Positions 7,025 through 54,941 of a stretch of DNA of 64,000 nucleotides are shown here, one piece after another. The notes under the pieces are model-generated. The model did no database searches and had not been told where the DNA came from. It saw only the letters and a list, made by a program, of their open reading frames with translations. Origin of the DNA: Bacteroidales bacterium (GTDB lineage: Bacteria; Bacteroidota; Bacteroidia; Bacteroidales; DTGW01); assembly GCA_049968755.1 (NCBI GenBank), contig JBMFQE010000007.1:22498-86497 (forward strand), in the 5' to 3' direction. Made by a program: the position numbers and the translations under genes. Every line of letters starts with the position of its first letter. The first letter of the stretch is position 1.

Positions 7025-7122
7025 ATGAAACACCCATGTTCCTGCAAACGCAAACACAATAGGGATAAAATTGCGAACATGGGTGTTCCATCAAACCTTT
7101 AAAAATTAATTTTATTATGATG
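7025..7122 (+). repeat. Copy 1 of ~97-nt hairpin-containing repeat ending in the ATGATG start of SusC-1
   Basis: ATGAAACACCCATGTTCCTGCAAACGCAAACACAATAGGGATAAAATTGCGAACATGGGTGTTCCATCAAACCTTTAAAAATTAATTTTATTATGATG. The 13-bp perfect inverted repeat is 7029-7041 / 7075-7087. Confidence 0.95.
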
Positions 7123-10100
7123 AAAAACAACTACTACACTACGTGTGCAAAGAGACGACTGTTACTGATTACAGCATGGTTGTTTTTATGGATGCCTGCT
7201 GTACTGTATGCACAGAAGATCAAAACAGTAAGTGGTATAGTGAAGGATGCAACGGGTGCACCTATTGTGGGTGCTACCGTAGTTATTAAAGGTACAAACA
7301 TTGGGACGCTGACCAATCAGGAGGGTAAATTTTCAATTAGTGTGCCCGAGGGAAAGGGAAACACACTGGTTATTTCCTTCCTGGGAATGGAACGCCAGGA
7401 ATATGATATCAGTGAGGTATCTACCATTGAGGCGGTATTGAAAGAGACGGAGGTTAAGCTCGAGGATGTAATTGTGGTGGGCTATGGCAGCCAAAAAAAG
7501 GAGAGTGTAGTGGGTGCCATTGCACAGACCAAGGGAGATGTACTTGTACGAACGGGCGGGGTTACGAATGTGGCTTCCACGCTGACAGGTAATCTGCCGG
7601 GGGTTGTTACCATGCAGGGGACGGGTAAGCCGGGGCAGGAAGACCCCGTGATCTTAATTCGCGGGCAGGCAACCTGGAACAATTCCAGGCCGCTTGTATT
7701 GGTCGATGGTATTGAACGTTCGCTCGATGGGCTTGATATTAATTCCATTCAGAGTATTTCGGTACTGAAAGACGCTTCGGCTACGGCCGTGTTTGGTGTA
7801 AAGGGTGCAAATGGGGTTATTCTGGTTACTACCAAACGTGGTGCTGAGGGTAAAGCCAATATTTCGATCAGCTCCAATGTGACCATGAAAGCACCCTCAA
7901 AACTACCAAACAAGTACGATGCTTACGATGCTCTTAAGTATCGTAATATCGCCATTGAACGTGAACTTGGGCTGAGTCCTTCCTCCTGGGACTATGTAAC
8001 CCCTATCCCCGAGCTCAATAAGTACAGAAATCCTGCCAATCAGGAAGAAGCAGAGCGTTATCCCAATATCGACTGGCAAAAAGAATCGTTTAAGGATTAT
8101 GCTTTTTCTCACAATAATAATATTAGTATTTCGGGTGGAACACCTTTTGTAAAATATTACAGTGCGCTCGATATAATTAATGAAGGTGATGTAATAAAGG
8201 TAAGGGAAAATAATAAAGGTTATACACCAGGTTATGGTTATAATCGTTTGAACGTTCGAAGCAACCTCGATTTTAATCTTACAAAAACTACTACGCTATC
8301 TACTAACCTGGCCGGTATTTATGCCAATCAAAAAGAAACATGGAGCGATTTTGAGTACACCATCTGGCAAAATGCCTATACTACGGCTCCCGACGTTTTT
8401 CCTGTTCAATATAGCGACGGGTATTGGGGTTACTGGCTGCAGGATGTGCAGGCATTGAATTCGCTTCGAATTGTATCTAACACGGGTATTCGTAATCGTA
8501 AGACAACCAGCTTGAATACCGACTTCACCCTGACACAGGACCTTAGCATGTTGCTAACAGGGCTCAATGTAAAAGGAACCCTTGCCATGGACAACCAGTT
8601 TGTGTCGGTAGGGGGTATTTACGACGACGGTAGCGCTTATCAGAAATGGATTTCGCCCGATGGCCAGGTATTCTATAAAAATACTACCGGCGCTATTAAG
8701 TACGACTACGTACTTCCTCAATGGTCGGTTCGCAGCGACCAGATGGACAATACGCTAACCGCTCGTAAGCTTTTCTACCAGATGCAGCTCAACTATGCAC
8801 GTAAGTTCAATCGTCACGATTTCACGGCTATGGGACTGTTTAGCCGCGATAAGCTGGCGACGGGTAGCGAATTTCCTCATTATCGCGAAGACTGGGTGTT
8901 CCGCGTGACCTATAATTTTGACGCACGGTATTTTATCGAAATCAATGGTGCGTACAATGGATCCGAAAAATTTGGACCAAAATATCGTTTCGATTTCTTC
9001 CCTTCGGCGGCCATTGGTTGGTCAATTGCCGATGAGAAAATCGTTAAAAATAACTTAGATTGGATAAATCGATTGAAGGTTCGCGCTTCGTATGGATATA
9101 TTGGAAACGATGATATATCCAATGTGGGTAGGTGGTTGTACCTATCCCAGTGGGCTGCAGGAGGATCCTCGTCGCTGGGACTGAACAACGGTACCATGAG
9201 TCCATACACCTGGTACCGAGAAGCTGTTATTGGCAATCCCGAACTACACTGGGAGAAAGTGCGAAAAACCAATATTGGTGTCGACTATGGCTTTTTTAAC
9301 TCGCTAATCGAAGGTTCGATCGATTTTTTTAACGATTACCGAACCGATATTCTGGTGGCCGGTTCCGATAGAGCTATCCCTTCATATTTTGGAGGTGCGG
9401 CTCCCGTAGCAAATCTTGGCAAAGTTAAAGTCAATGGGTTTGAATGGGAAATTAGAATCAGTAAAACATTTCCAGGAGGATTTCGTCCTTACATCAATTT
9501 TAACATGAGTCATGCCATCGATAAAATCATCGAACGCAACGACCCCGAATTGCTCGATGACTATCAGAAACAGGCAGGATATTCTATTGGTCAATTCCGC
9601 TCCCACGTTATTACCGACTATTACAATACCTGGAATGAGGTGTATGGAAGCACTCCAGTAAATACCAACGATCATCAGAAATTACCGGGTAACTACAACC
9701 TTATCGACTTTAACGCCGACGGCGTCATTAACGATTATGATGTGATACCCAATGGTTATCCCGAACGTCCGCAAAACACCTATAATACTACCATAGGTTT
9801 CGATTATAAGGGATTCAGCTTTATGGTTCAGTTTTACGGGGTAAATAATGTAACCCGTTACATGTCGTATGGCAATTTTGCTGTTAAAACAAATATTCTG
9901 TACAATCAGGGCGAATTCTGGTCAAAGGAAAATCCTAATGCTCCTTCTTTTATGCCTCGCTGGGCTTCGGTTTGGGATTACTATGGTAACTTTTATGCAT
10001 ATGATGGTTCGTACTTACGACTGAAAAATGCTGAGATAGCATATACTATTGAGTCGAAAGGCATTCAACGCTACGGGCTGAAGTCGATGAAAATATTTCT

Positions 10101-20395: not shown

Positions 20396-22336
<1,941 letters not shown>

Positions 22337-22398
22337 CATTTTAACCAATGGCTTACTTTCATTTAACGATATGGAAACCATCCGAAAAAACTGAATAT

Positions 22399-24372
22399 AT
22401 GAAGCTTAATATGTTAAAACTATGGTTTGCAACACCGATCTTTTTCTTGATGACTCAGCTTTATGCCGAAAATTACACTGTTAATAGTCCCGATGGAAAA
22501 CTTGCAGTAAATGTTTGGCTCAACGATAAAGGCAAAGTTTTTTATAGTATTTTGTATTTGCAAGACACGATTTTAAAAGAATCAAGATTAGGACTGGTGC
22601 GAAGTGATGGCGATTTTACCAGAAATTTAATATGGGAGTCCGTATCCGAACAAGTTCAGGTAAATGACAAATATACATTATTGCATGGTAAACGTCGTAA
22701 CTGTGAGTATACGGCCAACAAAAGAGTGTTCTACTTCAAAAATAAAGATTCGAAAAGGTTGGCTGTAATTTTTCAGGTATCGAATGACGGTGTTGCTTTT
22801 CGCTATTATTTTCCGGAAAAATCCGATAAAAAAGTAACGATATACAAAGAGGTTACTTCATTTCATTTCGATAGTTCAGCAAAAGGATTTCTACAGCCTT
22901 GTCCCGATGCACGTACAGGATGGTGTTACACACAGCCATCGTACGAAGAATATTATCAGATCAACATTCCGGTAGGCACACCTTCACCTTTTCAGGCAGG
23001 ATGGGTGATGCCAGCATTGTTCAATTTTAGTCTTTATTGGATAAGCATTACCGAGGCTGCGGTTGACACGAACTATTGTGGTTCGCGCCTGAGCCAGTTT
23101 GCCCCGGATGGTGAGTATAGCATTCAGTTTCCTCAGCCACAGGAAAGCATGGGTAGTGAACCTTATCTCCCTGAGTCAGTGCTCCCCTGGTACACTCCAT
23201 GGAGGATAATTGCTATATCCGACAATCTGGGAGGACTGGTGGAATCGAACCTGGCAACTGATCTGGCTAACCCTGCCCAATACGACGTTTCCGGTTGGCT
23301 CGAACCGGGTATAGCCTCGTGGAGCTGGGTTATTTTAAAGGATAATGCCACCGTGTATGAGATGCAAAAACATTTTATCGATTTTGCATCGGAAATGAAA
23401 TGGAGGTATTGCCTGATTGATGCCCTGTGGGATACACAGATAGGCTATGATAAAATAAAGGAACTGGCCGATTATGCAAAAACGAAAAATGTCAAAATAT
23501 TGCTCTGGTACAATTCGGCCGGAGATTGGAACACCACAACCATTACCCCGCGCGACCGCTTGCTTACGAGCGAGTCACGCAATGCCGAATTTAGTCGGCT
23601 AAAAGAAATGGGTATAGCTGGTATCAAAGTCGATTTCTTTGGTGGCGACGGACAGTCGATGATGAAATACTATATTGATATCTTGAAAGATGCTGCAAAA
23701 TATAATCTTGCTGTTAACTTTCATGGGTGTACCTATCCACGAGGTTGGCATAGGACATTCCCCAATCTGGTCTCCATGGAAGGCATAAGGGGAGAGGAAT
23801 ATGTTACTTTCAGCCAGTACTTTGCCGATAATCAACCCTGGCATTGCACGGTTATCCCTTTTACCCGAAATCTTTTCGACCCAATGGATTTTACGCCTGT
23901 AAATTTTTCGGGAATTCCAAATATTACGCGAAGAACTACGGGTGGATTTGAAATAGCCCTATCGGTTTTGTTTACTTCGGGCATTCAGCATATTGCTGAA
24001 ACGCCGGAAGGAATGGCAAAGCAACCAGATTATGTTATTGAATTCATGCGCACTGTTCCGAACGTATGGGACGATGTACAATTCATCGATGGGTATCCAG
24101 GGAAGTTTGTAGTTCTGGCAAGAAAGAAAGGAGAAACATGGTACATTGCTGGCATTAATGGCGAAAAAGCCGAAAGGATAATCGAATTAAATCCATCGTT
24201 CCTAAACAAAAAGGTAAAAGGCATGATGATTACGGATGCTGAGGATGGCAAGAGTTTCAAGAAAGAAAATATAAGCTTTGGCAAACCCTTGAAAATAAAA
24301 ATACTGCCTTATGGCGGATTTGTAATAAAAACATATGAAACACCCATGTTCCTGCAAACGCAAACACAATAG
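22399..24372 (+). CDS. GH97 glycoside hydrolase (alpha-glucosidase/alpha-galactosidase family)
   Basis: The start was moved to MKLNMLKLWFATPIFF (signal peptide). The GH97 N-domain is SPDGKLAVNVWLNDKGKVFYSILY. The catalytic barrel segment is IAGIKVDFFGGDGQSMMKYY...NFHGCTYPRGWHRTFPN. The last 11 codons and the stop lie inside repeat copy 2. Confidence 0.9.
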   Translation: MKLNMLKLWFATPIFFLMTQLYAENYTVNSPDGKLAVNVWLNDKGKVFYSILYLQDTILKESRLGLVRSDGDFTRNLIWESVSEQVQVNDKYTLLHGKRRNCEYTANKRVFYFKNKDSKRLAVIFQVSNDGVAFRYYFPEKSDKKVTIYKEVTSFHFDSSAKGFLQPCPDARTGWCYTQPSYEEYYQINIPVGTPSPFQAGWVMPALFNFSLYWISITEAAVDTNYCGSRLSQFAPDGEYSIQFPQPQESMGSEPYLPESVLPWYTPWRIIAISDNLGGLVESNLATDLANPAQYDVSGWLEPGIASWSWVILKDNATVYEMQKHFIDFASEMKWRYCLIDALWDTQIGYDKIKELADYAKTKNVKILLWYNSAGDWNTTTITPRDRLLTSESRNAEFSRLKEMGIAGIKVDFFGGDGQSMMKYYIDILKDAAKYNLAVNFHGCTYPRGWHRTFPNLVSMEGIRGEEYVTFSQYFADNQPWHCTVIPFTRNLFDPMDFTPVNFSGIPNITRRTTGGFEIALSVLFTSGIQHIAETPEGMAKQPDYVIEFMRTVPNVWDDVQFIDGYPGKFVVLARKKGETWYIAGINGEKAERIIELNPSFLNKKVKGMMITDAEDGKSFKKENISFGKPLKIKILPYGGFVIKTYETPMFLQTQTQ

Positions 24373-24431
24373 GGATAAATTTGCGAACATGGGTGTTCCA
24401 TCATACCTTTAAAAATTATTTTATTATGATG
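24335..24431 (+). repeat. Copy 2 of the ~97-nt repeat, overlapping the 3' end of GH97 and preceding GH31
   Basis: Same sequence as copy 1 except for A>T at element position 46, A>T at position 70 and a 1-nt deletion in the A/T tail. Confidence 0.95.
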
Positions 24432-24456
24432 AATAATTACTTATTACAACTCAATT

Positions 24457-28090
<3,634 letters not shown>

Positions 28091-28099
28091 AAAAATAAA

Positions 28100-30706
28100 A
28101 TGATGAAAAGATTGAAAAATATTTTTATTACTTCCTTAGTATTTTCTTCATTTAGTCTATCCAGCCAACAATTACCTTTTCAAAATCCTCACTTAAGTTT
28201 TGACGAACGGACACAGGATTTAATTTCGCGGTTGACTGTTGAAGAAAAAGTGGCTCTGATGTGCGATCAGTCTGAGGCTATCCCCCGATTGGGTATTCGT
28301 AAATTTAACTGGTGGAGCGAAGCACTGCATGGCTATGCCAACAATGATAGTGTAACAGTATTTCCTCAACCCATAGGCATGGCTGCTTCATTTAATGATG
28401 AAATGGTTTATCAGATCTTCTCGGCTGTTTCGGATGAGGCACGTGCAAAATATCACGAACACCTGCGTCGAGGAGGTGAAAATAAACGATTCCTGAGTCT
28501 TTCTGTGTGGACGCCTAATATTAATATTTTCCGCGATCCACGCTGGGGTCGTGGCCAGGAAACCTATGGCGAAGATCCTTATTTGATGACCCGCATGGGT
28601 GTTGCTGTGGTGAAAGGTTTACAGGGCCCCGACACAGCTAAGTATCGCAAATTACTTGCCTGCGCCAAGCATTATGCGGTTCATTCGGGTCCCGAATGGA
28701 GTCGTCACGAAATCAATTTAAATAATGTCGATCCGCGCGATTTATATGAAACCTATTTGCCGGCTTTCAAAGCATTGGTGCAGCAGGCAGGAGTGCGTCA
28801 GGTGATGTGTGCATATCACCGCCTCGACGATGAACCCTGTTGTGGCAATCGCAGGTTGCTGCAACGAATATTACGCGACGACTGGGGATACAAGTCTATC
28901 GTGGTGTCCGATTGTGGCGCTGTTACCGATTTTTTTACCAGCCATAAGGTTTCCTCCACTCCGGTTCATGCAGCTTCAAAAGCCGTTCTTGCCGGAACCG
29001 ATGTGGAATGCGTGTGGGACAATTATCCCTATAAAACCCTCCCAACAGCTGTAGAAAGGGACCTGATTAAAGTTGAGGATATCGATAGAAGTTTGTCGCG
29101 TGTATTACGCGGCCGTTTCGAACTCGGCGATTTTGACCCCGACTCACTGGTGCCCTGGACAAAAATTCCCTATACTATCATTAACAATGAAAAGCATCGT
29201 CAGCTTGCCCTGGAAATGGCTCGCCAATCCATTGTATTGCTGCAAAACAAAAACAATATTCTCCCGCTCAATAAGTCGGCGGTTAAAAAAATTGCTGTAA
29301 TTGGCCCCAATGCAAATGATGCTGTTATGCTCTGGGGAAATTATAATGGTACCCCTATACGTACTATTACTATTTTAGAGGGTATTACCTCAAAATTGTC
29401 ACCTGAAAAAATTCTTTATGACAAGGCATGCGACCTTGTTGAAGATAAGATTACCCAGAGCTACATAGGACGTGCCCAATTTGATGGGAAAACAGGCTTT
29501 AAGGCTACCTATTGGAATAATCGCGATTTTAGCGGTGATGTCGTTGCAGTACAAAATATTACCAATTCTGTTAAGTTAACTACTGCAGGCCAACATGAGT
29601 TTGCCCCTGGTGTAAAACTCGAGGATTTTTCGGCCAAATATGAAACCGAATTTACTGCCGACAAAGACGAAGAAATTACCTTTAACTATGGCGCTACAGG
29701 CTATTTTGAGTTATTCGTTAATGGTCAGTCACTGGTTAAAAGCTATAACTGGCGTACGCTTCCCTCGAAGGCTCATTTTAAGGTTGAGGCCGGCAAAAAA
29801 TATTCAATCGAGATACGCTACGCCCAGCTTTACAACTGGCAGGCCAACCTAGAGTTTGATTTTGGTAAGGAAGTAAATATCGATTTCAGCGGACTTATCG
29901 ATAAGTTAAAGGGTATTGATGTAGTAATCTTTGTAGGTGGTTTGTCGGGTAGGCTCGAGGGCGAGGAAATGCCTGTGCACTATCCGGGTTTTAAAGGAGG
30001 CGACCGTACCGACATTGAATTACCTGCTGTTCAGCGCAATTTGCTTAAAATGTTGAAGCAGGCCGGTAAAAAAGTCATTTTTGTCAATTGCTCAGGCTCG
30101 GCTATTGCGCTCACCCCCGAAACCCAGACCTGCGATGCTATTGTGCAGGCCTGGTATGCTGGCGAAGCCGGCGGACAGGCTGTGGCCGATGTGCTTTTTG
30201 GCGACTATAATCCATCGGGTAAATTGCCCGTTACCTTTTATAAAAGCTCCGACCAGCTTCCCGATTTCGAAAACTATTCAATGAAGGGTCGTACCTACCG
30301 CTTTATGAACGATGCTCTTTTCCCGTTTGGTTTTGGACTAAGCTACACAACCTTTAAAATAGGTGAGGCTAAGCTGAATAAAACCCAAATATCGGCTAAT
30401 GAACAAATAGAGCTTACTGTCCCTGTTACCAATGCTGGTAAACGCGATGGTACCGAAATAGTTCAGGTATACGTCCGTAAAGTGAATGATACCGACGGCC
30501 CCCTAAAAACGCTCAGAGGCTATCAGCGAATTGATGTGCCAGCAGGCAAAACCCGTAATGCTGTAGTTACGCTACCTTACTCATCTTTCGAGTTTTACGA
30601 CCGTAAAAGCGGTAAGCTGACGGTAACACCGGGAGAATATGAAATTTTTTACGGAAATAGCTCCGATAGCAAAGATTTAAAAAGTATGAAAATTATTGTT
30701 CACTAA
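28100..30706 (+). CDS. GH3 beta-xylosidase/beta-glucosidase with inserted PA14 domain
   Basis: 868 aa. GH3 motifs are WWSEALHG, NIFRDPRWGRGQETYGEDPYL, KHYAVHSGPE and VVSDCGAV. The PA14-like insert is ATYWNNRDFSGD...YFELFVNGQS. The C-terminal domain is fibronectin-like. Confidence 0.95.
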   Translation: MMKRLKNIFITSLVFSSFSLSSQQLPFQNPHLSFDERTQDLISRLTVEEKVALMCDQSEAIPRLGIRKFNWWSEALHGYANNDSVTVFPQPIGMAASFNDEMVYQIFSAVSDEARAKYHEHLRRGGENKRFLSLSVWTPNINIFRDPRWGRGQETYGEDPYLMTRMGVAVVKGLQGPDTAKYRKLLACAKHYAVHSGPEWSRHEINLNNVDPRDLYETYLPAFKALVQQAGVRQVMCAYHRLDDEPCCGNRRLLQRILRDDWGYKSIVVSDCGAVTDFFTSHKVSSTPVHAASKAVLAGTDVECVWDNYPYKTLPTAVERDLIKVEDIDRSLSRVLRGRFELGDFDPDSLVPWTKIPYTIINNEKHRQLALEMARQSIVLLQNKNNILPLNKSAVKKIAVIGPNANDAVMLWGNYNGTPIRTITILEGITSKLSPEKILYDKACDLVEDKITQSYIGRAQFDGKTGFKATYWNNRDFSGDVVAVQNITNSVKLTTAGQHEFAPGVKLEDFSAKYETEFTADKDEEITFNYGATGYFELFVNGQSLVKSYNWRTLPSKAHFKVEAGKKYSIEIRYAQLYNWQANLEFDFGKEVNIDFSGLIDKLKGIDVVIFVGGLSGRLEGEEMPVHYPGFKGGDRTDIELPAVQRNLLKMLKQAGKKVIFVNCSGSAIALTPETQTCDAIVQAWYAGEAGGQAVADVLFGDYNPSGKLPVTFYKSSDQLPDFENYSMKGRTYRFMNDALFPFGFGLSYTTFKIGEAKLNKTQISANEQIELTVPVTNAGKRDGTEIVQVYVRKVNDTDGPLKTLRGYQRIDVPAGKTRNAVVTLPYSSFEFYDRKSGKLTVTPGEYEIFYGNSSDSKDLKSMKIIVH

Positions 30707-30715
30707 GGCTTAACT

Positions 30716-30742
30716 CCGTAGAGAAAACTTTTTTCTCCACGG
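30716..30742 (+). terminator. Hairpin just downstream of GH3 (possible non-canonical terminator or processing site)
   Basis: ccgtagagaaaa / ttttctccacgg form a 12-bp stem with one mismatch and loop ctt. No U-tract follows. Confidence 0.35.
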
Positions 30743-30796
30743 GGGGCTGGCAGTCCATTGAACTAAATACCATTATTAACATAAACCCATAAAATT

Positions 30797-30894
30797 ATGA
30801 AACACCCATGTTCCTGCAAACGCAAACACAATAGTGATAAAATTGCGAACATGGGTGTTCCATCATACCTTTAAAAATTAATTTTATTATGATG
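30797..30894 (+). repeat. Copy 3 of the ~97-nt repeat, ending in the ATGATG start of the CE1-T9SS esterase
   Basis: 98 nt. It differs from copy 1 at element positions 39 (G>T) and 70 (A>T). Confidence 0.95.
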
Positions 30895-33264
30895 AAAAAT
30901 TTAAAATGTCTGCTTTTGGGGGTATGGGCATTTATTGCAGTTGAATTATCATATGCCCAGATCGAAGATTTTCAGGTGGGTAATACCACCCGTCAAATGC
31001 TTGTATATGCTCCCTCGACCATTGTTCCAGGTCGTCCGCTGCTTATTTCCATGCATGGATATAACCAGGACATTAATTATCAGAAAAACCAGACCCAATG
31101 GGAAACCATTGCCAAAGAGAACAATTTTGTGGTAGTGTATCCTGCCGGACTTAATAATTCGTGGGATATATCGGGCAATACTGATATTGATTTTATCCTT
31201 GCCATTATTGATGAAATGGTTAACAGGTATGGTATCGATAGGGAAAGGGTATACCTTTCGGGCTTTTCGATGGGTGGCATGATGACCTATTATGCAGCTA
31301 CTAAAATAGCCGATAAAATTGCTGCTTTTGCCCCTGTTAGTGGTTACCCGCTATGGAATAGCAATATCAGTAGTTCAAGGCCTGTCCCTATTATTCATGT
31401 ACATGGCACTGCCGACGATGTGGTAGCTTACAGTGGAGTGCAACCCTACCTAAATGGATGGATTGCCAGGGATAGTTGTCCTACTACAGCCGTTATTACA
31501 AAACCCTATCCACCCGACAAACCCAATTCCAATGGCACCAGATATTATTGGGGACCGGGTACCGATTCCGTCGAAATAGTGTTGATAAGCATTACCGGTG
31601 TAGGTCACTGGCACTCCATCGACCCCAATGGGGTGAATACCAGCAAGGAAATTTGGGATTTTTGTAAAAAATTTTCACTTGGCTTTGGGGTTCCTAAGTT
31701 CAAGGCAGCTTATGTGCTCGATGCTGACCCAAAACAAATAATGGTTACTTTTACAAAGCCAATCAAGTCATTGCCATCATTTGAGGGTTTTTCGGTAAAA
31801 GTCGATGGGCTGGATGCTGCCATTGATACCATTGTGCTGGCCGATTCCGTTCATATCGCTATTGTGCTAAAGAACAATATTACAAAAACCAACGAGGTTA
31901 CCCTGTCGTATGGCAACGGAAATGTGGTGTCGGTGTACAACAAAGCACTGGTGGCTTTTAACGATACGGCTGTAGATAATCAACTCTATGGATCTGCTCC
32001 AAAATTAGTTGAGCTGGCGGTTACCGAAAGTGGTGATAGCTTAGTGGCACAATTCAATAAGAAGATGTTGCTATCCAATGATATTTCTTCATTAGAACTG
32101 AAGGCTACTTTCAATGGACAAAAAAATATTTCGCTCCTTAATTGCAGTTTTCTGAACAACGACTCTACCACACTGGTATTCCAGCTTTCGGATACGGTTT
32201 ATGCCGATTATCAGCTAGCCCTCAGTTACACCGGCAATAGCATCTTATCGGTTGATAGTGGAGTGTTCAAGAATGACACAGCTTACATAGTAAAAAATAA
32301 GGCTAAGGGACTACCTGTTCATATTGTCTCAGCCAGTGTCGACAATAACGCAATAGCTTTAACCCTGGTATTTTCAAAACCTATGGCAATGATTGATGCA
32401 CAAATTCCTCAGCTCGCATTGAAGGTCAATGGTAAGGCCGTAGCCATTAAAGAAGTGTTCAATATTAAAAATACTGTTAAGTTAAACCTCTATAGCAATT
32501 TATACTATGGCGATACGGTAACCATTTCTTATACACCCGGAAACATTACGGCTGCCGATAAGGGTTCGTTGGAGGCTTTCACCGATTTTTTAGTTGAAAA
32601 TCCATTACCAGCACCCATTTACGTCCAAATACCCGGAAAAGTTGAGGCCGAAAATTATACCCTTCAGTTTGGCACAGCTACCGAAAATACAAGTGACGCC
32701 GGTGGCGGATTGAATGTAGGCTGGACCGAAACAGGCGACTGGCTGGTTTATGCCATCGAAAACAATACCAACGATACGGAATTTAAAATTTTATTCCGCC
32801 TGGCTGCCCAATCTGCTGGGCCTAAGTTCGATTATTACCTGGATGATGTTAAAATAGGTACCATTAGTGTTCCCTCTACTGGTGCATGGCAAACATTTAC
32901 CTCGGTAATAAAAGATATATCTGTACCGAAGGGAAAACACTACCTTAAGATTGTTACAGTTACCGGAGGCTTCAATATCAACTATTTTGACATAGAAAAG
33001 GATTTTGTTGGAATTACAACCAAAAATACTGGCAACATATCCATTTATCCCAATCCTGCATCCAATGAAATTGCGATTAAATCACCCGATTTCAGATACA
33101 ATAGGATTCAAATTACCGACATGATGGGGAGACTAATTATGGGCAAGTCTGTCAACTATGCCCCTGAAATGACCTTGCCTCTGAGTTTAAAAAATGGGGA
33201 TTACTTTGTAGTTCTTAGGAATGGTACGACTGTTTATTCTCAAAAGATTAGCATAACAAAATAA
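30889..33264 (+). CDS. Multimodular esterase (PHB-depolymerase/CE1-like) with SWM-like repeats, CBM6 and T9SS C-terminal domain
   Basis: 791 aa. The N-terminal alpha/beta hydrolase has PLLISMHGYNQD, YLSGFSMGGMMTY (GxSxG) and HVHGTADDVV. Three modules end in LSYGNGN / LSYTGNS / ISYTPGN. The CBM6 segment is VEAENYT...GWTETGDWLVY...TGAWQTF...NINYFDIE. The CTD is IYPNPASNEIAI...GDYFVVL...KISITK. Confidence 0.85.
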   Translation: MMKNLKCLLLGVWAFIAVELSYAQIEDFQVGNTTRQMLVYAPSTIVPGRPLLISMHGYNQDINYQKNQTQWETIAKENNFVVVYPAGLNNSWDISGNTDIDFILAIIDEMVNRYGIDRERVYLSGFSMGGMMTYYAATKIADKIAAFAPVSGYPLWNSNISSSRPVPIIHVHGTADDVVAYSGVQPYLNGWIARDSCPTTAVITKPYPPDKPNSNGTRYYWGPGTDSVEIVLISITGVGHWHSIDPNGVNTSKEIWDFCKKFSLGFGVPKFKAAYVLDADPKQIMVTFTKPIKSLPSFEGFSVKVDGLDAAIDTIVLADSVHIAIVLKNNITKTNEVTLSYGNGNVVSVYNKALVAFNDTAVDNQLYGSAPKLVELAVTESGDSLVAQFNKKMLLSNDISSLELKATFNGQKNISLLNCSFLNNDSTTLVFQLSDTVYADYQLALSYTGNSILSVDSGVFKNDTAYIVKNKAKGLPVHIVSASVDNNAIALTLVFSKPMAMIDAQIPQLALKVNGKAVAIKEVFNIKNTVKLNLYSNLYYGDTVTISYTPGNITAADKGSLEAFTDFLVENPLPAPIYVQIPGKVEAENYTLQFGTATENTSDAGGGLNVGWTETGDWLVYAIENNTNDTEFKILFRLAAQSAGPKFDYYLDDVKIGTISVPSTGAWQTFTSVIKDISVPKGKHYLKIVTVTGGFNINYFDIEKDFVGITTKNTGNISIYPNPASNEIAIKSPDFRYNRIQITDMMGRLIMGKSVNYAPEMTLPLSLKNGDYFVVLRNGTTVYSQKISITK

Positions 33265-33283
33265 AGATTGAGCCATGTTTAAA

Positions 33284-33340
33284 CACAGAGGGCACGGAGA
33301 AACACAGAGAAATGCATAAAAATCTTTGTGCCATCTGTGG
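33284..33340. repeat. CACAGAG/CTCYGTG-type short tandem and inverted repeat cluster (REP-like)
   Basis: cacagagggcacggagaaacacagag ... ctttgtgccatctgtgg. The outer arms can pair as a ~16-bp stem including G-U pairs. The same heptamer family occurs at 51809-51843. Confidence 0.6.
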
Positions 33341-33468
33341 TAAATTAATAGGGGAAAAAAATAACTGAGCAATTGGATTTTAATGTTGAAGTCATGCCTT
33401 AGGATAATAAAAAAATCAGCTTTACACGCTTTTGGAAATACAGCCTCAGTAATTAAAGATTATATGCC

Positions 33469-33566
33469 ATGAAACACCCATGTTCCTGCGAACGCAAACA
33501 CAATAGTGATAAAATTGCGAACATGGGTGTTCCATCATACCTTTAAAAATTAATTTTATTATGATG
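33469..33566 (+). repeat. Copy 4 of the ~97-nt repeat, ending in the ATGATG start of GH43
   Basis: 98 nt. It is identical to the orphan copy 6 over the first 81 nt. Confidence 0.95.
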
Positions 33567-35117
33567 CAAAACAATATATTTTTTGCAATTATTTTCTTAT
33601 TCTGTTTTATAAATTTTTCAGAATCTCAAAAAGCCACCAATCCTGTCATCTTTGCCGATGTGCCTGATATGTCGATGATACGGGTAGGGGATACATATTA
33701 CATGAGTAGTACTACCATGCATATGTGCCCGGGTGTACCGGTAATGAAATCAAAAGACCTTACAAACTGGGAAATAATAGGTTATGCTTATGATATCCTT
33801 GAGGATATTGACGAAACGCGTCTTACAAACGGAAAAAGCGATTATGGGCGGGGTTCATGGGCCAGCTGCTTACGATTTCACAAGGGAACATACTATTTGA
33901 GTACTTTTTCCCATACTACCGGCAAAACATATATTTTCAAAACAAAAGATATTGAGAGTGGCCAATGGGAAAGATTTGCATTTGCCCCCACCTTACACGA
34001 TCATTCCATATTTTTAGACGATGACGGCAAAATTTATATTATCTGGGGTGCAGGGACGTTAAAAATTGCTGAACTTAAGGAAGATTTTTCGGGATTAAAG
34101 GAGGGCACGGTAAGGATATTGATTGAAAATGCAAGTGCACCGGCAGGAGATAATATCGGCCTTCCGGCTGAGGGGTCGCAGCTTTTTAAGGTAAAGGATA
34201 AATATTATCTCTTTAATATTACCTGGCCAAGAGGCGGAATGCGAACCGTTTTAATCCATCGTGCCGATAACATAAATGGCCCATGGGAAGGCCGGATAGC
34301 CTTACAGGACAGAGGTATTGCCCAGGGTGGATTAATCGATATGCCCGATGGACGATGGTTTGCTTATCTTTTCCGTGATTTTGGTGCCGTAGGCCGTATT
34401 CCTTATTTAGTGCCGGTTACCTGGCAGGATGATTGGCCTATCCTGGGAATTAATGGCCATGTACCTGATACGCTCGATTTACCTTTTAATAAAAGTATTA
34501 TTCCTGCCATTGTATCATCCGACGAATTTGACCGAAATGAGGGAGAGCTTGACCTACCTCTCGTGTGGCAATGGAATCATAACCCCGACAATAATTTATG
34601 GTCAATTAAACAGAGGAAAGGATATTTGCGGTTAATCACTGGTACGGTAGTCGATGATTTCGAAAAAGCAAGAAATACGCTGACACAACGAACTTTTGGA
34701 CCGAAATGCAGCGGAGCTGTGAAAATTGATGTGTCGGGCATGAAAGAAGGCGATTTCGCAGGTTTGACTTTATTACAAAAACAGTACGGACTGATAGGCG
34801 TAAAATACGAAAATGGTCAGAAAAGAATTGTAATGGTTATTAATCAAAACAAAGTCCCTGAAGAAATCGAGAGTGTGCCTTTAAAACAAAATATAGTGTA
34901 TTTTAAGGCCAACTGTAATTTTACAAATATGGTTGATACCGCCCGTTTTTATTACAGTCTCGATAACAAGGCATGGAAACCTATTGGCAATACTCTAAAA
35001 ATGACATACAATCTGGCGCATTTTATGGGGTATCGCTTTGGACTCTTTAATTATGCCACCAAAATAACTGGTGGCTACGTTGACTTTGATTGGTTCAGAA
35101 TTAATCAAATATTTTAA
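33561..35117 (+). CDS. GH43 glycoside hydrolase with C-terminal concanavalin-like beta-sandwich
   Basis: 518 aa with a signal peptide. NPVIFADVPDMSMIRVGDTYYMSSTTMHMCPGVPVMKSKDLTNW, EGSQLFKVKDKYYLF and the C-terminal GYRFGLFNYAT...VDFDWFRI are typical of GH43 enzymes with a GH43_C2-like domain. Confidence 0.9.
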   Translation: MMQNNIFFAIIFLFCFINFSESQKATNPVIFADVPDMSMIRVGDTYYMSSTTMHMCPGVPVMKSKDLTNWEIIGYAYDILEDIDETRLTNGKSDYGRGSWASCLRFHKGTYYLSTFSHTTGKTYIFKTKDIESGQWERFAFAPTLHDHSIFLDDDGKIYIIWGAGTLKIAELKEDFSGLKEGTVRILIENASAPAGDNIGLPAEGSQLFKVKDKYYLFNITWPRGGMRTVLIHRADNINGPWEGRIALQDRGIAQGGLIDMPDGRWFAYLFRDFGAVGRIPYLVPVTWQDDWPILGINGHVPDTLDLPFNKSIIPAIVSSDEFDRNEGELDLPLVWQWNHNPDNNLWSIKQRKGYLRLITGTVVDDFEKARNTLTQRTFGPKCSGAVKIDVSGMKEGDFAGLTLLQKQYGLIGVKYENGQKRIVMVINQNKVPEEIESVPLKQNIVYFKANCNFTNMVDTARFYYSLDNKAWKPIGNTLKMTYNLAHFMGYRFGLFNYATKITGGYVDFDWFRINQIF

Positions 35118-35211
35118 AACTAAAATGAAACTTTCAATAGGCAGTATCAAAACATAACCTGAAAACAAGAAATTAGAGAATATTTCAATTTATTGTGAAA
35201 AATAAAAAATT

Positions 35212-35306
35212 ATGAAACACCCATGTTCCTGCGAACGCAAACACAATAGTGATAAAATTGCAAACATGGGTGTTCCATCATACCTTTAAAAATTAATATT
35301 ATGATG
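35212..35306 (+). repeat. Copy 5 of the ~97-nt repeat, ending in the ATGATG start of GH43-CBM6
   Basis: 95 nt. A G>A change at element position 51 shortens the stem to 12 bp. The A/T tail has a 3-nt deletion. Confidence 0.95.
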
Positions 35307-36650
35307 AAAAAATTATTCCTCTTATTTTTACTATTTGTGACCTTTGAAAATATTTTTTCACAAAATCCAGTAATACGGAATCAATTTACTGCCGATCCAT
35401 CGGCTCATGTCTTCAATGGCAAGGTGTACGTGTATCCTTCCCATGATATCCCGGTGCCCGAAGGAAAGGGATTGCGTAAAGATTGGTTTTGTATGGAGGA
35501 TTATCATGTCTTTTCTTCCAGTAATCTCGTCGATTGGGTTGATCATGGCGTAATACTTACGCAATACCAGGTGCCATGGGTCGATACTACAACTTATAGC
35601 CTGTGGGCACCCGATTGTGTTGAACGTAATGGTAAGTATTTTTTTTATTTTCCGGCAATTAGTCAAGAAAAGGATAGCGTAACTGGTAGAAAGCTGTTTC
35701 GCATAGGGGTTGCAATAGCCAATAAACCCGATGGACCATATGCTATTCAGCCCGAACCCATAAAGGGAATTGTAGGTATCGATCCCTGTGTGTTTATCGA
35801 TAAAGATGGTCAGGCTTATATCTATTGGTCGCTGGGTAATATTTATGTAGCAAAGCTGAAGGATAATATGCTTGAACTTGCCTCTGATCCTATCATTATT
35901 GAAAATTTGCCCCAAAAAGGTTTGAAAGAGGGTCCATGGGTTTTTGAGCGAAATGGCTTGTATTATCTTACTTTTCCTCATGTTGAGAATCAGATTGAAC
36001 GGCTCGAGTATGCCGTTGGAAGTAGTCCCATCGGACCATTCAAAATGACTGGGGTAATAATGGACGAGTCTCCTATGAACTGTTGGACCAATCATCATTC
36101 TATCATTGAATACAAGGGTCAGTGGTACTTGTTTTATCATCAAAATCATCTTTCGCCTCATTTCGATAAAAATCGTTCCATTTGTATCGATAGCCTCTTT
36201 TTTAATTCCGATGGAACCATTCGTAAGGTTGTACCTACTAATCGTGGAGTAGGGGTTACGGATGCTTCAAAAAGAATCGACATCGATAGATATAGTAAAA
36301 TTAGCGAAAAAGGTATTACTATTGCATTTATCGATTCTACCAAAACTTTCGTTGGATGGAAAACTATTTTCCATCAAAAAGATGCCTGGGTACAATACAA
36401 TAGCGTGAGCTTCGAAAATAAAAATTATAAAAATGTTATAATCAAATACCTGGCCGAGAGTGGAGGTGTAATAGAGCTCAAGCTAAATAACGTCAATAAT
36501 CCTTCCATTGCAAAAATGATTATTCCTCCAGCCAATCAATGGCAGATTGTTAAATTTAAAGTAAATGCATTAAAACCGGGATTGCATAATTTGTTGGTGT
36601 CATCTGCCGATGATAGAAAGGTTGAAATTGATTGGCTGACTTTTGAATGA
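35301..36650 (+). CDS. GH43 glycoside hydrolase with C-terminal CBM6-like module (arabinofuranosidase/xylosidase type)
   Basis: 449 aa with a signal peptide. GH43 motifs are NPVIRNQFTADPSAHVFNGKVYVYPSHD, LWAPDCVERNGKYFFYF and KEGPWVFERNGLYYLTF. The CBM6-like tail is AWVQYNSVSF...IDWLTFE. Confidence 0.9.
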   Translation: MMKKLFLLFLLFVTFENIFSQNPVIRNQFTADPSAHVFNGKVYVYPSHDIPVPEGKGLRKDWFCMEDYHVFSSSNLVDWVDHGVILTQYQVPWVDTTTYSLWAPDCVERNGKYFFYFPAISQEKDSVTGRKLFRIGVAIANKPDGPYAIQPEPIKGIVGIDPCVFIDKDGQAYIYWSLGNIYVAKLKDNMLELASDPIIIENLPQKGLKEGPWVFERNGLYYLTFPHVENQIERLEYAVGSSPIGPFKMTGVIMDESPMNCWTNHHSIIEYKGQWYLFYHQNHLSPHFDKNRSICIDSLFFNSDGTIRKVVPTNRGVGVTDASKRIDIDRYSKISEKGITIAFIDSTKTFVGWKTIFHQKDAWVQYNSVSFENKNYKNVIIKYLAESGGVIELKLNNVNNPSIAKMIIPPANQWQIVKFKVNALKPGLHNLLVSSADDRKVEIDWLTFE

Positions 36651-54740: not shown

Positions 54741-54844
54741 TTAGTAATTCGAATTTAATAAACGTTACAAATCGCTTTTTTTATATTTTGTAGTTAAAAT
54801 TACTAATTTTCGAAGGAAGTGAAGATATTTTTTTTGATGATTTT

Positions 54845-54941
54845 CATCATAAAAAATTAGTTTTTAAAGGTATGATGGAACACCCATGTTCGCAATTTTA
54901 TCACTATTGTGTTTGCGTTCGCAGGAACATGGGTGTTTCAT
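54845..54941 (-). repeat. Copy 6 (orphan, minus strand) of the ~97-nt repeat, 104 nt upstream of recQ
   Basis: The reverse complement is identical to copy 4 over the first 81 nt. Its ATGATG opens only a 15-codon ORF (54803-54850). Confidence 0.95.

Follow-up and report, generated by a model that had tools for sequence, protein, structure and literature searches.

A small repeat that probably inserted off target between the GH97 and GH31 genes of an uncultured Bacteroidota member

The Neisseria REP2 and Borrelia IR-A/IR-B repeats are 100–180 bp long, contain two internal stem-loops, lack terminal inverted repeats, and spread by an unknown mode (Delihas 2011, PMC3184786). Other repeats – Rickettsia RPE, ERIC/BOX/RUP, and BRE – are known to extend or enter coding regions (PMC3184786). 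Here we examine a repeat family present in a 64,000-nucleotide stretch of a Bacteroidales draft genome (GCA_049968755.1, contig JBMFQE010000007.1, positions 22,498 to 86,497; hereafter ‘the window’), with an emphasis on the copy that lies between a GH97 and a GH31 gene (copy 2). In our view, copy 2 likely arose when a small non-coding element, which is mobile or was until recently, inserted off target. Taken alone, this locus is of moderate interest; the element family behind it is of much more.

The source genome (G000) is a 3.0 Mb, 42% G+C draft from an uncultured member of the Bacteroidota, which initiate translation without a Shine-Dalgarno lead. The element family bears on start-codon choice in this group and on how a selfish element invades ~2% of a genome’s gene starts without killing its host. 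Comparisons below draw on L162 (the closest relative) and on G001 and G002 (members of the same genus).

The GH97 3' end and the GH97–GH31 junction

The original prediction described a repeat copy starting with the ATG at 24335, a GH97 stop codon (TAG) at 24370–24372, and an ATGATG at 24426, and we confirmed the repeat and each of these coordinates. The junction contains the following features:

22348–24372, + strand: GH97 alpha-glucosidase-type gene, native to Glu664 (GAA 24337–24339) according to the open reading frame (ORF) list, Pfam, and the end of orthologue homology.
24335–24339, + strand: left ATGAA, presumed to be the pentamer first targeted; the GH97 frame reads it as (T)AT GAA (Tyr663-Glu664). 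Family copies start ATGAAAC, empty sites have a single ATGAA(A), and the L162 GH97 ends RTY-stop.
24340–24433, + strand: inserted DNA of copy 2, 94 nt against a consensus of 95 (a 1-nt deletion in the A/T tail), ending in the rebuilt ATG-ATGAA, as judged from copy alignments and the filled/empty comparison.
24340–24372, + strand: element-encoded extension TPMFLQTQTQ and new stop TAG (24370–24372), from the translation and from the same tail on two unrelated genes.
24434–24456, + strand: native junction remnant, in which TAA 24434–24436 would be the old GH97 stop and the next 20 nt the native spacer and proximal GH31 leader, by comparison with L162 and G001.
24426–24467, + strand: 13-codon ORF, whose first ATG is the element’s, second ATG the rebuilt target, and other 11 codons the former GH97–GH31 spacer.
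24457–26889, + strand: GH31 gene with a native start and signal peptide, Pfam GH31 domains, and a start position conserved in G001 and L162.

The GH97 ORF has 674 codons, ends in GGFVIKTYETPMFLQTQTQ before its stop, and contains GH97_N, Glyco_hydro_97, and GH97_C domains, the last of which stops at residue 661. When the protein was aligned with its orthologues (23 inspected loci and the best 120 of 3226 database homologues), homology ended at residue 662–663 – the left border of the element. Coverage of the C-terminal GH97 query was 93–97% among these best 120 homologues (95–97% in all but one), and the residues that follow GGFVIKT in orthologues are variable and number 0–11, mostly 1–3. The TPMFLQTQTQ tail was present in none of the 23 inspected or best 120 database orthologues, yet ETPMFL[QR]TQTQ-stop also ends two unrelated genes of the same genome (C1:136954 and C1:348292), at both of which a short ORF separates the tail from the next gene. 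Because two unrelated genes share the tail, coding conservation is ruled out as its source, and no element-free orthologue with an ETPMFLQTQTQ ending was found.

Element-free junctions provide a view of the locus prior to insertion. L162, which is 89% identical over the C-terminal part of GH97, reads ACT TAT TAA (RTY-stop) followed by a 22-nt spacer to the GH31 ATG, and G001 ends GH97 with RTN-stop (TAA) followed by a 14-nt spacer to the GH31 ATG; neither has the element. In G002, GH97 ends KTIESH-stop and a divergent family member follows, with its right-hand ATGAAA serving as the GH31 start. The source genome reads AAA ACA T(ATGAA, ACACC...TTATG, ATGAA)T AAT TAC, the parenthesized part being occupied by copy 2. 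Subtracting 94 nt, namely one of the two ATGAA copies and the 89 nt that separate them, yields ACA TAT GAA TAA TTACTTATTACAACTCAATT ATG. The reconstructed pre-insertion locus would thus have GH97 ending KTYE-stop, a 20-nt spacer, and the GH31 start, with the model’s empty site reading ...ACATATGAATAATTAC... / ...GTAATAAAAACATATGAATAATTACTTATTACAACTCAATTATGCTT.... Since the Tyr codon is common to the source genome and L162, we take the left ATGAA to be native DNA. The distance from the GH97 stop to the GH31 start would have grown from an inferred 20 nt to the present 84 nt, with a stable hairpin inside.

These comparisons bear out the original proposal that the element arrived after GH97 existed: orthologue homology stops at its left border, and the alignment places native gene ends at that border with element-free junctions in L162 and G001. 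Two parts of that proposal require adjustment. The 11 terminal residues ETPMFLQTQTQ had all been assigned to the element; the recurrence of the tail on two unrelated genes upholds this for ten of them, whereas the initial E (GAA) is part of the duplicated target. The repeat had also been said to replace the GH97 3' end; the stop was indeed displaced, but the reconstructed ACA TAT GAA TAA implies that no sense codon was lost. As we read the sequence, the last 10 residues of GH97 are repeat-derived, no native residue is missing, and only the stop has moved.

Might the GH97 tail instead be native coding sequence, or might the junction be an assembly artefact caused by the repeat? Mis-joins and breaks in draft assemblies are frequent at high-copy repeats, and several partial copies of this family sit at contig ends. 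However, the GH97–GH31 adjacency and the entire cluster are syntenic with G001, G002, and L162, which excludes a mis-join, and native sequence resumes on both sides of the element. With the tail found on unrelated genes and on no orthologue, we regard this explanation as effectively refuted.

The repeat family and its insertion rule

The source genome contains 95 full and 8 partial copies of the element that are ~97–100% identical. Allowing ≤3 mismatches, the window has five occurrences of a 60-nt core where zero are expected, so the similarity is not due to chance, and a repeat search identified a sixth, more diverged window copy. Alignment of the 95 full copies revealed sharp borders (ATGAAAC...ATGATGAAA), with conservation running from ATGAAACACCC to ...TTATGATGAAA and unrelated flanks. 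The element measures ~101 nt from outer border to outer border, and its insertion adds ~95 nt. In addition to copy 2, the window contains:

7025–7125, + strand: copy 1, whose ATGATG at 7117 starts the first susC-like gene; it has the variant bases CTGCAAACG and TAGGGAT, as does copy 2.
30797–30897, + strand: copy 3, whose ATGATG at 30889 starts a 791-codon gene; the orthologous G002 site is empty.
33469–33569, + strand: copy 4, whose ATGATG at 33561 starts a 518-codon gene.
35212–35309, + strand: copy 5, whose ATGATG at 35301 starts a 449-codon gene; in G001, the orthologue begins ATGATTCGA and lacks the element.
54842–54941, − strand: copy 6, whose ATGATG opens a 15-codon ORF (MMKIIKKNIFTSFEN-stop); a 735-codon gene begins ~100 nt further on.

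The minority bases CTGCAAACG and TAGGGAT are common to copies 1 and 2, and TAGGGAT also occurs in a copy at C10:23465; copy 2 may thus have arisen by local hopping from copy 1, which lies 17 kb upstream within the same gene cluster. The region at ~28100–35300 contains three genes (868, 791, and 518 codons) that G002 has in part and that the syntenic G001 contig lacks; an element copy opens the second, the third, and the gene after them (copies 3–5).

Other genera within the family, as well as two or more further families of the order, carry diverged subfamilies (72–90% identity). All variants start ATGAAAC and end ATGAAA. Element load is very uneven between relatives’ genomes, with a patchy spread and genome-specific subfamilies – two same-genus genomes, for example, hold another subfamily (ATGAAACGARCATGT...CGGATGRAAA). 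Rfam 15 gave no gathering-score match in the window and only sub-threshold, chance hairpin matches at the locus at E up to 1, and no published description of the element was found in the literature.

The element’s RNA is predicted to form two helices:

24339–24397, + strand: helix 1, a long hairpin with arms at 24339–24358 and 24380–24397 and the GH97 stop in its loop.
24399–24431, + strand: helix 2, in which CATCATA (24399–24405) pairs with TATGATG (24425–24431) and covers the start codons of the 13-codon ORF, according to the fold and the consensus structure.

The predicted fold has an energy of −35.1 kcal/mol (z = −4.9). An inverted repeat joins element positions ~4–24 to 45–65 and leaves a 36-nt unpaired A/T tail on the 3' side. 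Across genomes, compensatory arm pairs are observed in helix 1 (CACCCATG/CATGGGTG, CATCCATG/CATGGATG, CATACATG/CATGTATG, and CACACATTTT/AAAAGTGTG), and the helix 2 pairing between the right-end ATGATG and the CATCAT that immediately follows the hairpin on its 3' side is matched by a compensatory CATACG/CGTATG in two other genera. Within an alignment of 14 sequences, 93.7% of cells pair and double changes are found in 6 of 17 pairs, a result equaled by none of 500 shuffles and by no slid control. A terminator role for the hairpin was considered and rejected: no T-run follows it, and an intrinsic-terminator scan identified no site in the element beyond chance.

The left ATG, which would be the old start of an invaded gene, opens a 25-codon frame (MKHPCSCERKHNSDKIANMGVPSYL-stop; element positions 1–78, e.g. 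7025–7102). This frame is the sole ORF inside the element; it crosses the hairpin, stops ~15 nt before the rebuilt ATGATG, and is open in several subfamilies of differing sequence. We do not claim a coding role for it, as its intactness in most copies follows from their near-identity and the G009/G013 subfamily has it cut to four codons.

Orthologous sites in relatives clarify how the element inserts. For 14 further copies of the source genome, the corresponding sites in two same-genus genomes were ~13 times empty and once held a divergent family member of the relative’s own subfamily. The ~13 empty sites read as a 5' untranslated region (UTR), a single ATGA[A/G]A, and the gene; at the filled sites, the left flank corresponds in alignment to the 5' UTR of the relatives, and the gene picks up again directly behind the right-hand ATGAAA. 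Insertion thus lengthens the site by ~95 nt and gives it another ATGAA(A). In tandem elements of two other genomes (L148 and L153), neighbors share a single ATGAA(A).

Element occupancy departs from the supply of targets. Outside elements, ATGAA occurs at 7785 sites within ORFs, 1105 intergenic sites, and 447 gene starts (crudely called), while elements occupy 55 gene starts, ~37 intergenic sites, and just 3 ORF-internal sites, all of the latter in the last two codons of a gene. This distribution shows selection, insertions persisting only where the host protein is spared. Of the insertions in this genome, three lie in a coding frame; copy 2, which is among them, indicates that the element recognizes the bare ATGAA rather than a functional start site.

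Two further observations concern occupied sites. At four copies (C1:351435, C1:476195, C2:389522, and C4:154334), the stop of the upstream gene is the TGA in the left ATGAA (aTGAaa); these read as gene pairs that formerly overlapped at an ATGA stop/start and have since been pushed 95 nt apart. At the susC start (7025–7125), contig C71 of G001 (L131–L133) holds a longer subfamily (ATGAAACGAACATGT...CGGATGGAAA, ~143 nt). Differing subfamilies at one site in sister species would imply turnover, either by re-insertion at the rebuilt ATGAA with loss of the older copy or by gene conversion.

The next downstream gene is co-directional in 80 of the 95 full copies, and in 55 the ORF begun by the element’s ATG(ATG) has 60 codons or more, our threshold for counting the element as supplying the start codon of the downstream gene. 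The ATGATG frame of the remaining 40, which include copies 2 and 6, spans just 3–58 codons. This strong bias, together with the presence of five co-oriented copies in one polysaccharide-utilization locus (PUL), would also fit a non-mobile cassette resembling Neisseria REP2, a regulatory leader or promoter spread and homogenized by recombination; copy 2 would then equip GH31 and the PUL genes downstream of it with a promoter or regulated leader of their own. The Bacteroidota −7 promoter consensus is TAnnTTTG, and copy 2 alone (1 of 95) carries a perfect match, TAAATTTG, at 24376–24383, where an A-to-T change at element position 47 alters TAAAATTG. REP2 and Borrelia IR repeats with a promoter, ribosome-binding site, and ATG offer a precedent (PMC3184786).

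Several findings argue against such a cassette. The other copies and the subfamilies do not conserve the −7-like box, nor does a −33 TTTG lie at the spacing expected of a partner; chance or a new internal GH31 promoter might explain the match. No conserved promoter consensus across copies and subfamilies and no Shine-Dalgarno-like motif was identified, and the sigma-70 and terminator scans of the element returned nothing beyond chance. Genes downstream of the copies are functionally unrelated. ATGAA duplication at the ~13 empty/filled pairs, tandem arrays that share an ATGAA, and patchy genome-specific bursts instead point to site-specific insertion. We therefore regard a non-mobile cassette as improbable, though a leader or promoter function and insertion are compatible with each other.

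The GH31 start and the 13-codon ORF

The GH31 ORF contains four GH31-type Pfam domains. Its start position and N-terminus match those of G001 (MLNKERIFLW...) and L162 (MYENKSVFIL...), and the 22 nt upstream of its ATG were untouched by the insertion. On this sequence evidence, we take 24457 to be the real GH31 start.

Sequence inspection also confirmed that the ATGATG at 24426–24431 opens a 13-codon ORF that is out of frame with GH31 and overlaps its ATG (24457) by 11 nt, the GH31 frame being +1 to that of the small ORF. This upstream ORF (uORF) is found only in the source genome; in L162 and G001 the GH97 stop is followed by 14–22 nt and the GH31 ATG, with no uORF. Because the GH31 start is native and the small ORF is built from the element’s ATG and the old spacer, the ORF appears to be a mechanical by-product of insertion. 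A frameshift from the uORF into GH31 was considered and ruled out, as GH31’s own ATG and N-terminus are conserved in relatives.

The original prediction recognized in this arrangement a geometry for translational coupling or interference, and the uORF could be envisioned as a selected coupling or attenuating device that sets GH31 expression relative to GH97. The geometry is real, as the uORF ends 8 nt beyond the GH31 AUG; the tail that precedes ATGATG in the element leads 55 genes and so is probably a competent initiation region; the predicted helix 2 could mask the uORF AUGs, a switch of the kind a regulator might use; and termination-reinitiation over short distances is established in bacteria. 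Nevertheless, the uORF follows automatically from the insertion rule, its peptide is not conserved, and relatives manage with a 14–22-nt spacer and none. Among the 12 comparable copies, defined as those that open a short ORF with a co-directional gene within ~110 nt, the position of the uORF stop relative to the next gene start varies, with extremes of a 74-nt overlap and a 65-nt gap. We see nothing in the geometry at copy 2 that points to selection for it, and coupling appears unsupported beyond the geometry itself. A selected device thus seems quite unlikely, and the small ORF is probably a by-product.

Since an identical tail leads 55 genes, ribosomes probably start at 24426 or 24429, perhaps tempered by helix 2. 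They would then cross the GH31 AUG, stop 8 nt beyond it, and either mask GH31 initiation or re-initiate on it. The net effect on GH31 is probably modest.

These considerations bear on annotation: the C-terminal 10 residues of GH97 should be marked as repeat-derived, the GH31 start placed at 24457, and the small ORF not called a gene. Copy 2 also offers a clean test of the element’s leader and ATG when these are not fused to a gene.

Elsewhere in the window, a 99-nt direct repeat (76% identity) pairs 21716–21814 with 27467–27565, inside the ORFs 20396–22336 and 26873–28090. The L162 gene at the position of the first of these ORFs, directly upstream of GH97, matches Pfam Esterase (PF00756), and for this reason the 99-nt repeat probably represents paralogous esterase domains rather than a mobile repeat.

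A probable history of copy 2 and its relation to known elements

We propose the following history for copy 2. The element would integrate at an ATGAA(A) pentamer, adding ~95 nt and leaving ATGAA on both sides. Its usual target would be a gene start (ATG AAA, Met-Lys), with the gene surviving because the A/T-rich tail and the rebuilt ATG(ATG)AAA replace its leader and start codon. GH31 begins ATGCTT, and the pentamer actually struck would have been 25 nt upstream, where GH97 had its final two sense codons (T-ATGAA-TAA, Tyr-Glu-stop). GH97 would then read into the element and end at its TAG, gaining TPMFLQTQTQ while keeping its native residues, and the rebuilt ATG-ATGAA and old spacer would yield a 13-codon ORF that stops 8 nt beyond the intact, conserved GH31 AUG.

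As for the route of movement, our best guess would be a single-strand, HUH/Y1-type mechanism like that of IS200/IS605. The sole Y1_Tnp gene in the genome is an intact ORF (C1:434054–434398) with HVH and YIRQQ motifs. It sits between YbaK-like and recQ-like genes, with no element copies or obvious hairpins adjoining, a layout that resembles a domesticated or RAYT-like gene.

Several points weigh against this history. No transposase is linked to the element, the lone Y1_Tnp gene is not flanked by copies, and the Y1_Tnp family is present in 34 of 41 relatives whatever their element load. No conspecific genome with an empty GH97/GH31 site was found, so that the pre-insertion sequence is reconstructed rather than observed; metagenome scans returned 0 matches to a conspecific junction, empty or filled, and a protein search recovered no GH97 homologue above 89% identity over residues 400–674 (best 120 of 3226). 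Judged from the locus alone, a model without target duplication (native KT-stop, TAA) is disfavored solely by the Tyr codon shared with L162 and by the family-wide rule. Finally, subfamily differences at sister sites (the susC start; seg11) could represent old insertions homogenized by gene conversion, not repeated transposition. We nonetheless continue to favor an off-target insertion as the likely origin of copy 2.

A more far-reaching interpretation, which we offer tentatively, is that the family represents an undescribed kind of bacterial mobile element whose homing to start codons relies on the ATGAA sequence alone and which carries its own ‘repair kit’ – one that still fires at copy 2 and gives a translated mini-ORF that gates GH31. 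The kit, in a combination that is conceivable though doubtful, would comprise the A/T-rich leader, the rebuilt ATG, and the hairpin-spanning 25-codon frame, which runs from the old start to ~15 nt before the new one and would hand translation on. By the same speculative reasoning, copy 2 might serve as a natural control showing that targeting ignores gene context, a Tyr-Glu-stop having been struck.

How does the element compare with described systems? Like a classical MITE (a miniature transposable element with inverted repeats), it is short (<300 bp), non-coding, and present in many copies, and it has what looks like a target-site duplication (ATGAA(A) on both sides), for which staggered cuts and an element-borne copy are indistinguishable. 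Unlike a MITE, it lacks terminal inverted repeats; its termini are the direct repeat ATGAA(A).

The element also shares features with IS200/IS605-derived non-autonomous elements (PATEs) and with REP/REPIN sequences, which Y1 HUH transposases mobilize. These are likewise short and non-coding with a conserved imperfect hairpin, and a Y1_Tnp gene is present in the genome. PATEs insert beside a specific 4–5 nt, as ATGAA is found at every inspected element site, and the CATCAT by the hairpin foot, which is complementary to and covaries with the end ATGATG, recalls the guide/cleavage-site pairing of IS200/IS605. Differences from PATEs include a single long hairpin plus a short helix from its 3' foot to the right end instead of separate left- and right-end hairpins, the same pentamer on both sides in the manner of a target duplication, and a target of start codons with a replacement leader and ATG carried along. 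No linked transposase was found, element load is uncorrelated with Y1_Tnp presence, and mobility here is putative.

With respect to gene context, the element resembles REP2 and the Borrelia IR repeats, which also lie immediately upstream of genes and contribute a 5' UTR and ATG. There is no sequence relationship, however, and copies number ~100 here versus ~25. Any promoter or Shine-Dalgarno site in the element would be putative; unlike those repeats, it has a defined insertion rule (ATGAA) and documented empty sites. In adding in-frame codons and a new stop to a host 3' end (GH97 and two other genes), it behaves like RPE, ERIC/BOX/RUP, and BRE, except that such extension is a rare off-target outcome here (3 of 95 copies) and the start codon is the normal target. 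The 13-codon ORF recalls the overlapping uORFs of polycistronic bacterial mRNAs in stopping a few nucleotides past the next gene’s start codon, but the geometry alone is shared, the uORF here being unconserved and its translation, like any influence on GH31, putative. Relative to REP2, the IR repeats, and the repeats that extend 3' ends, what sets this family apart is a start-codon-like target documented by many empty/filled pairs.

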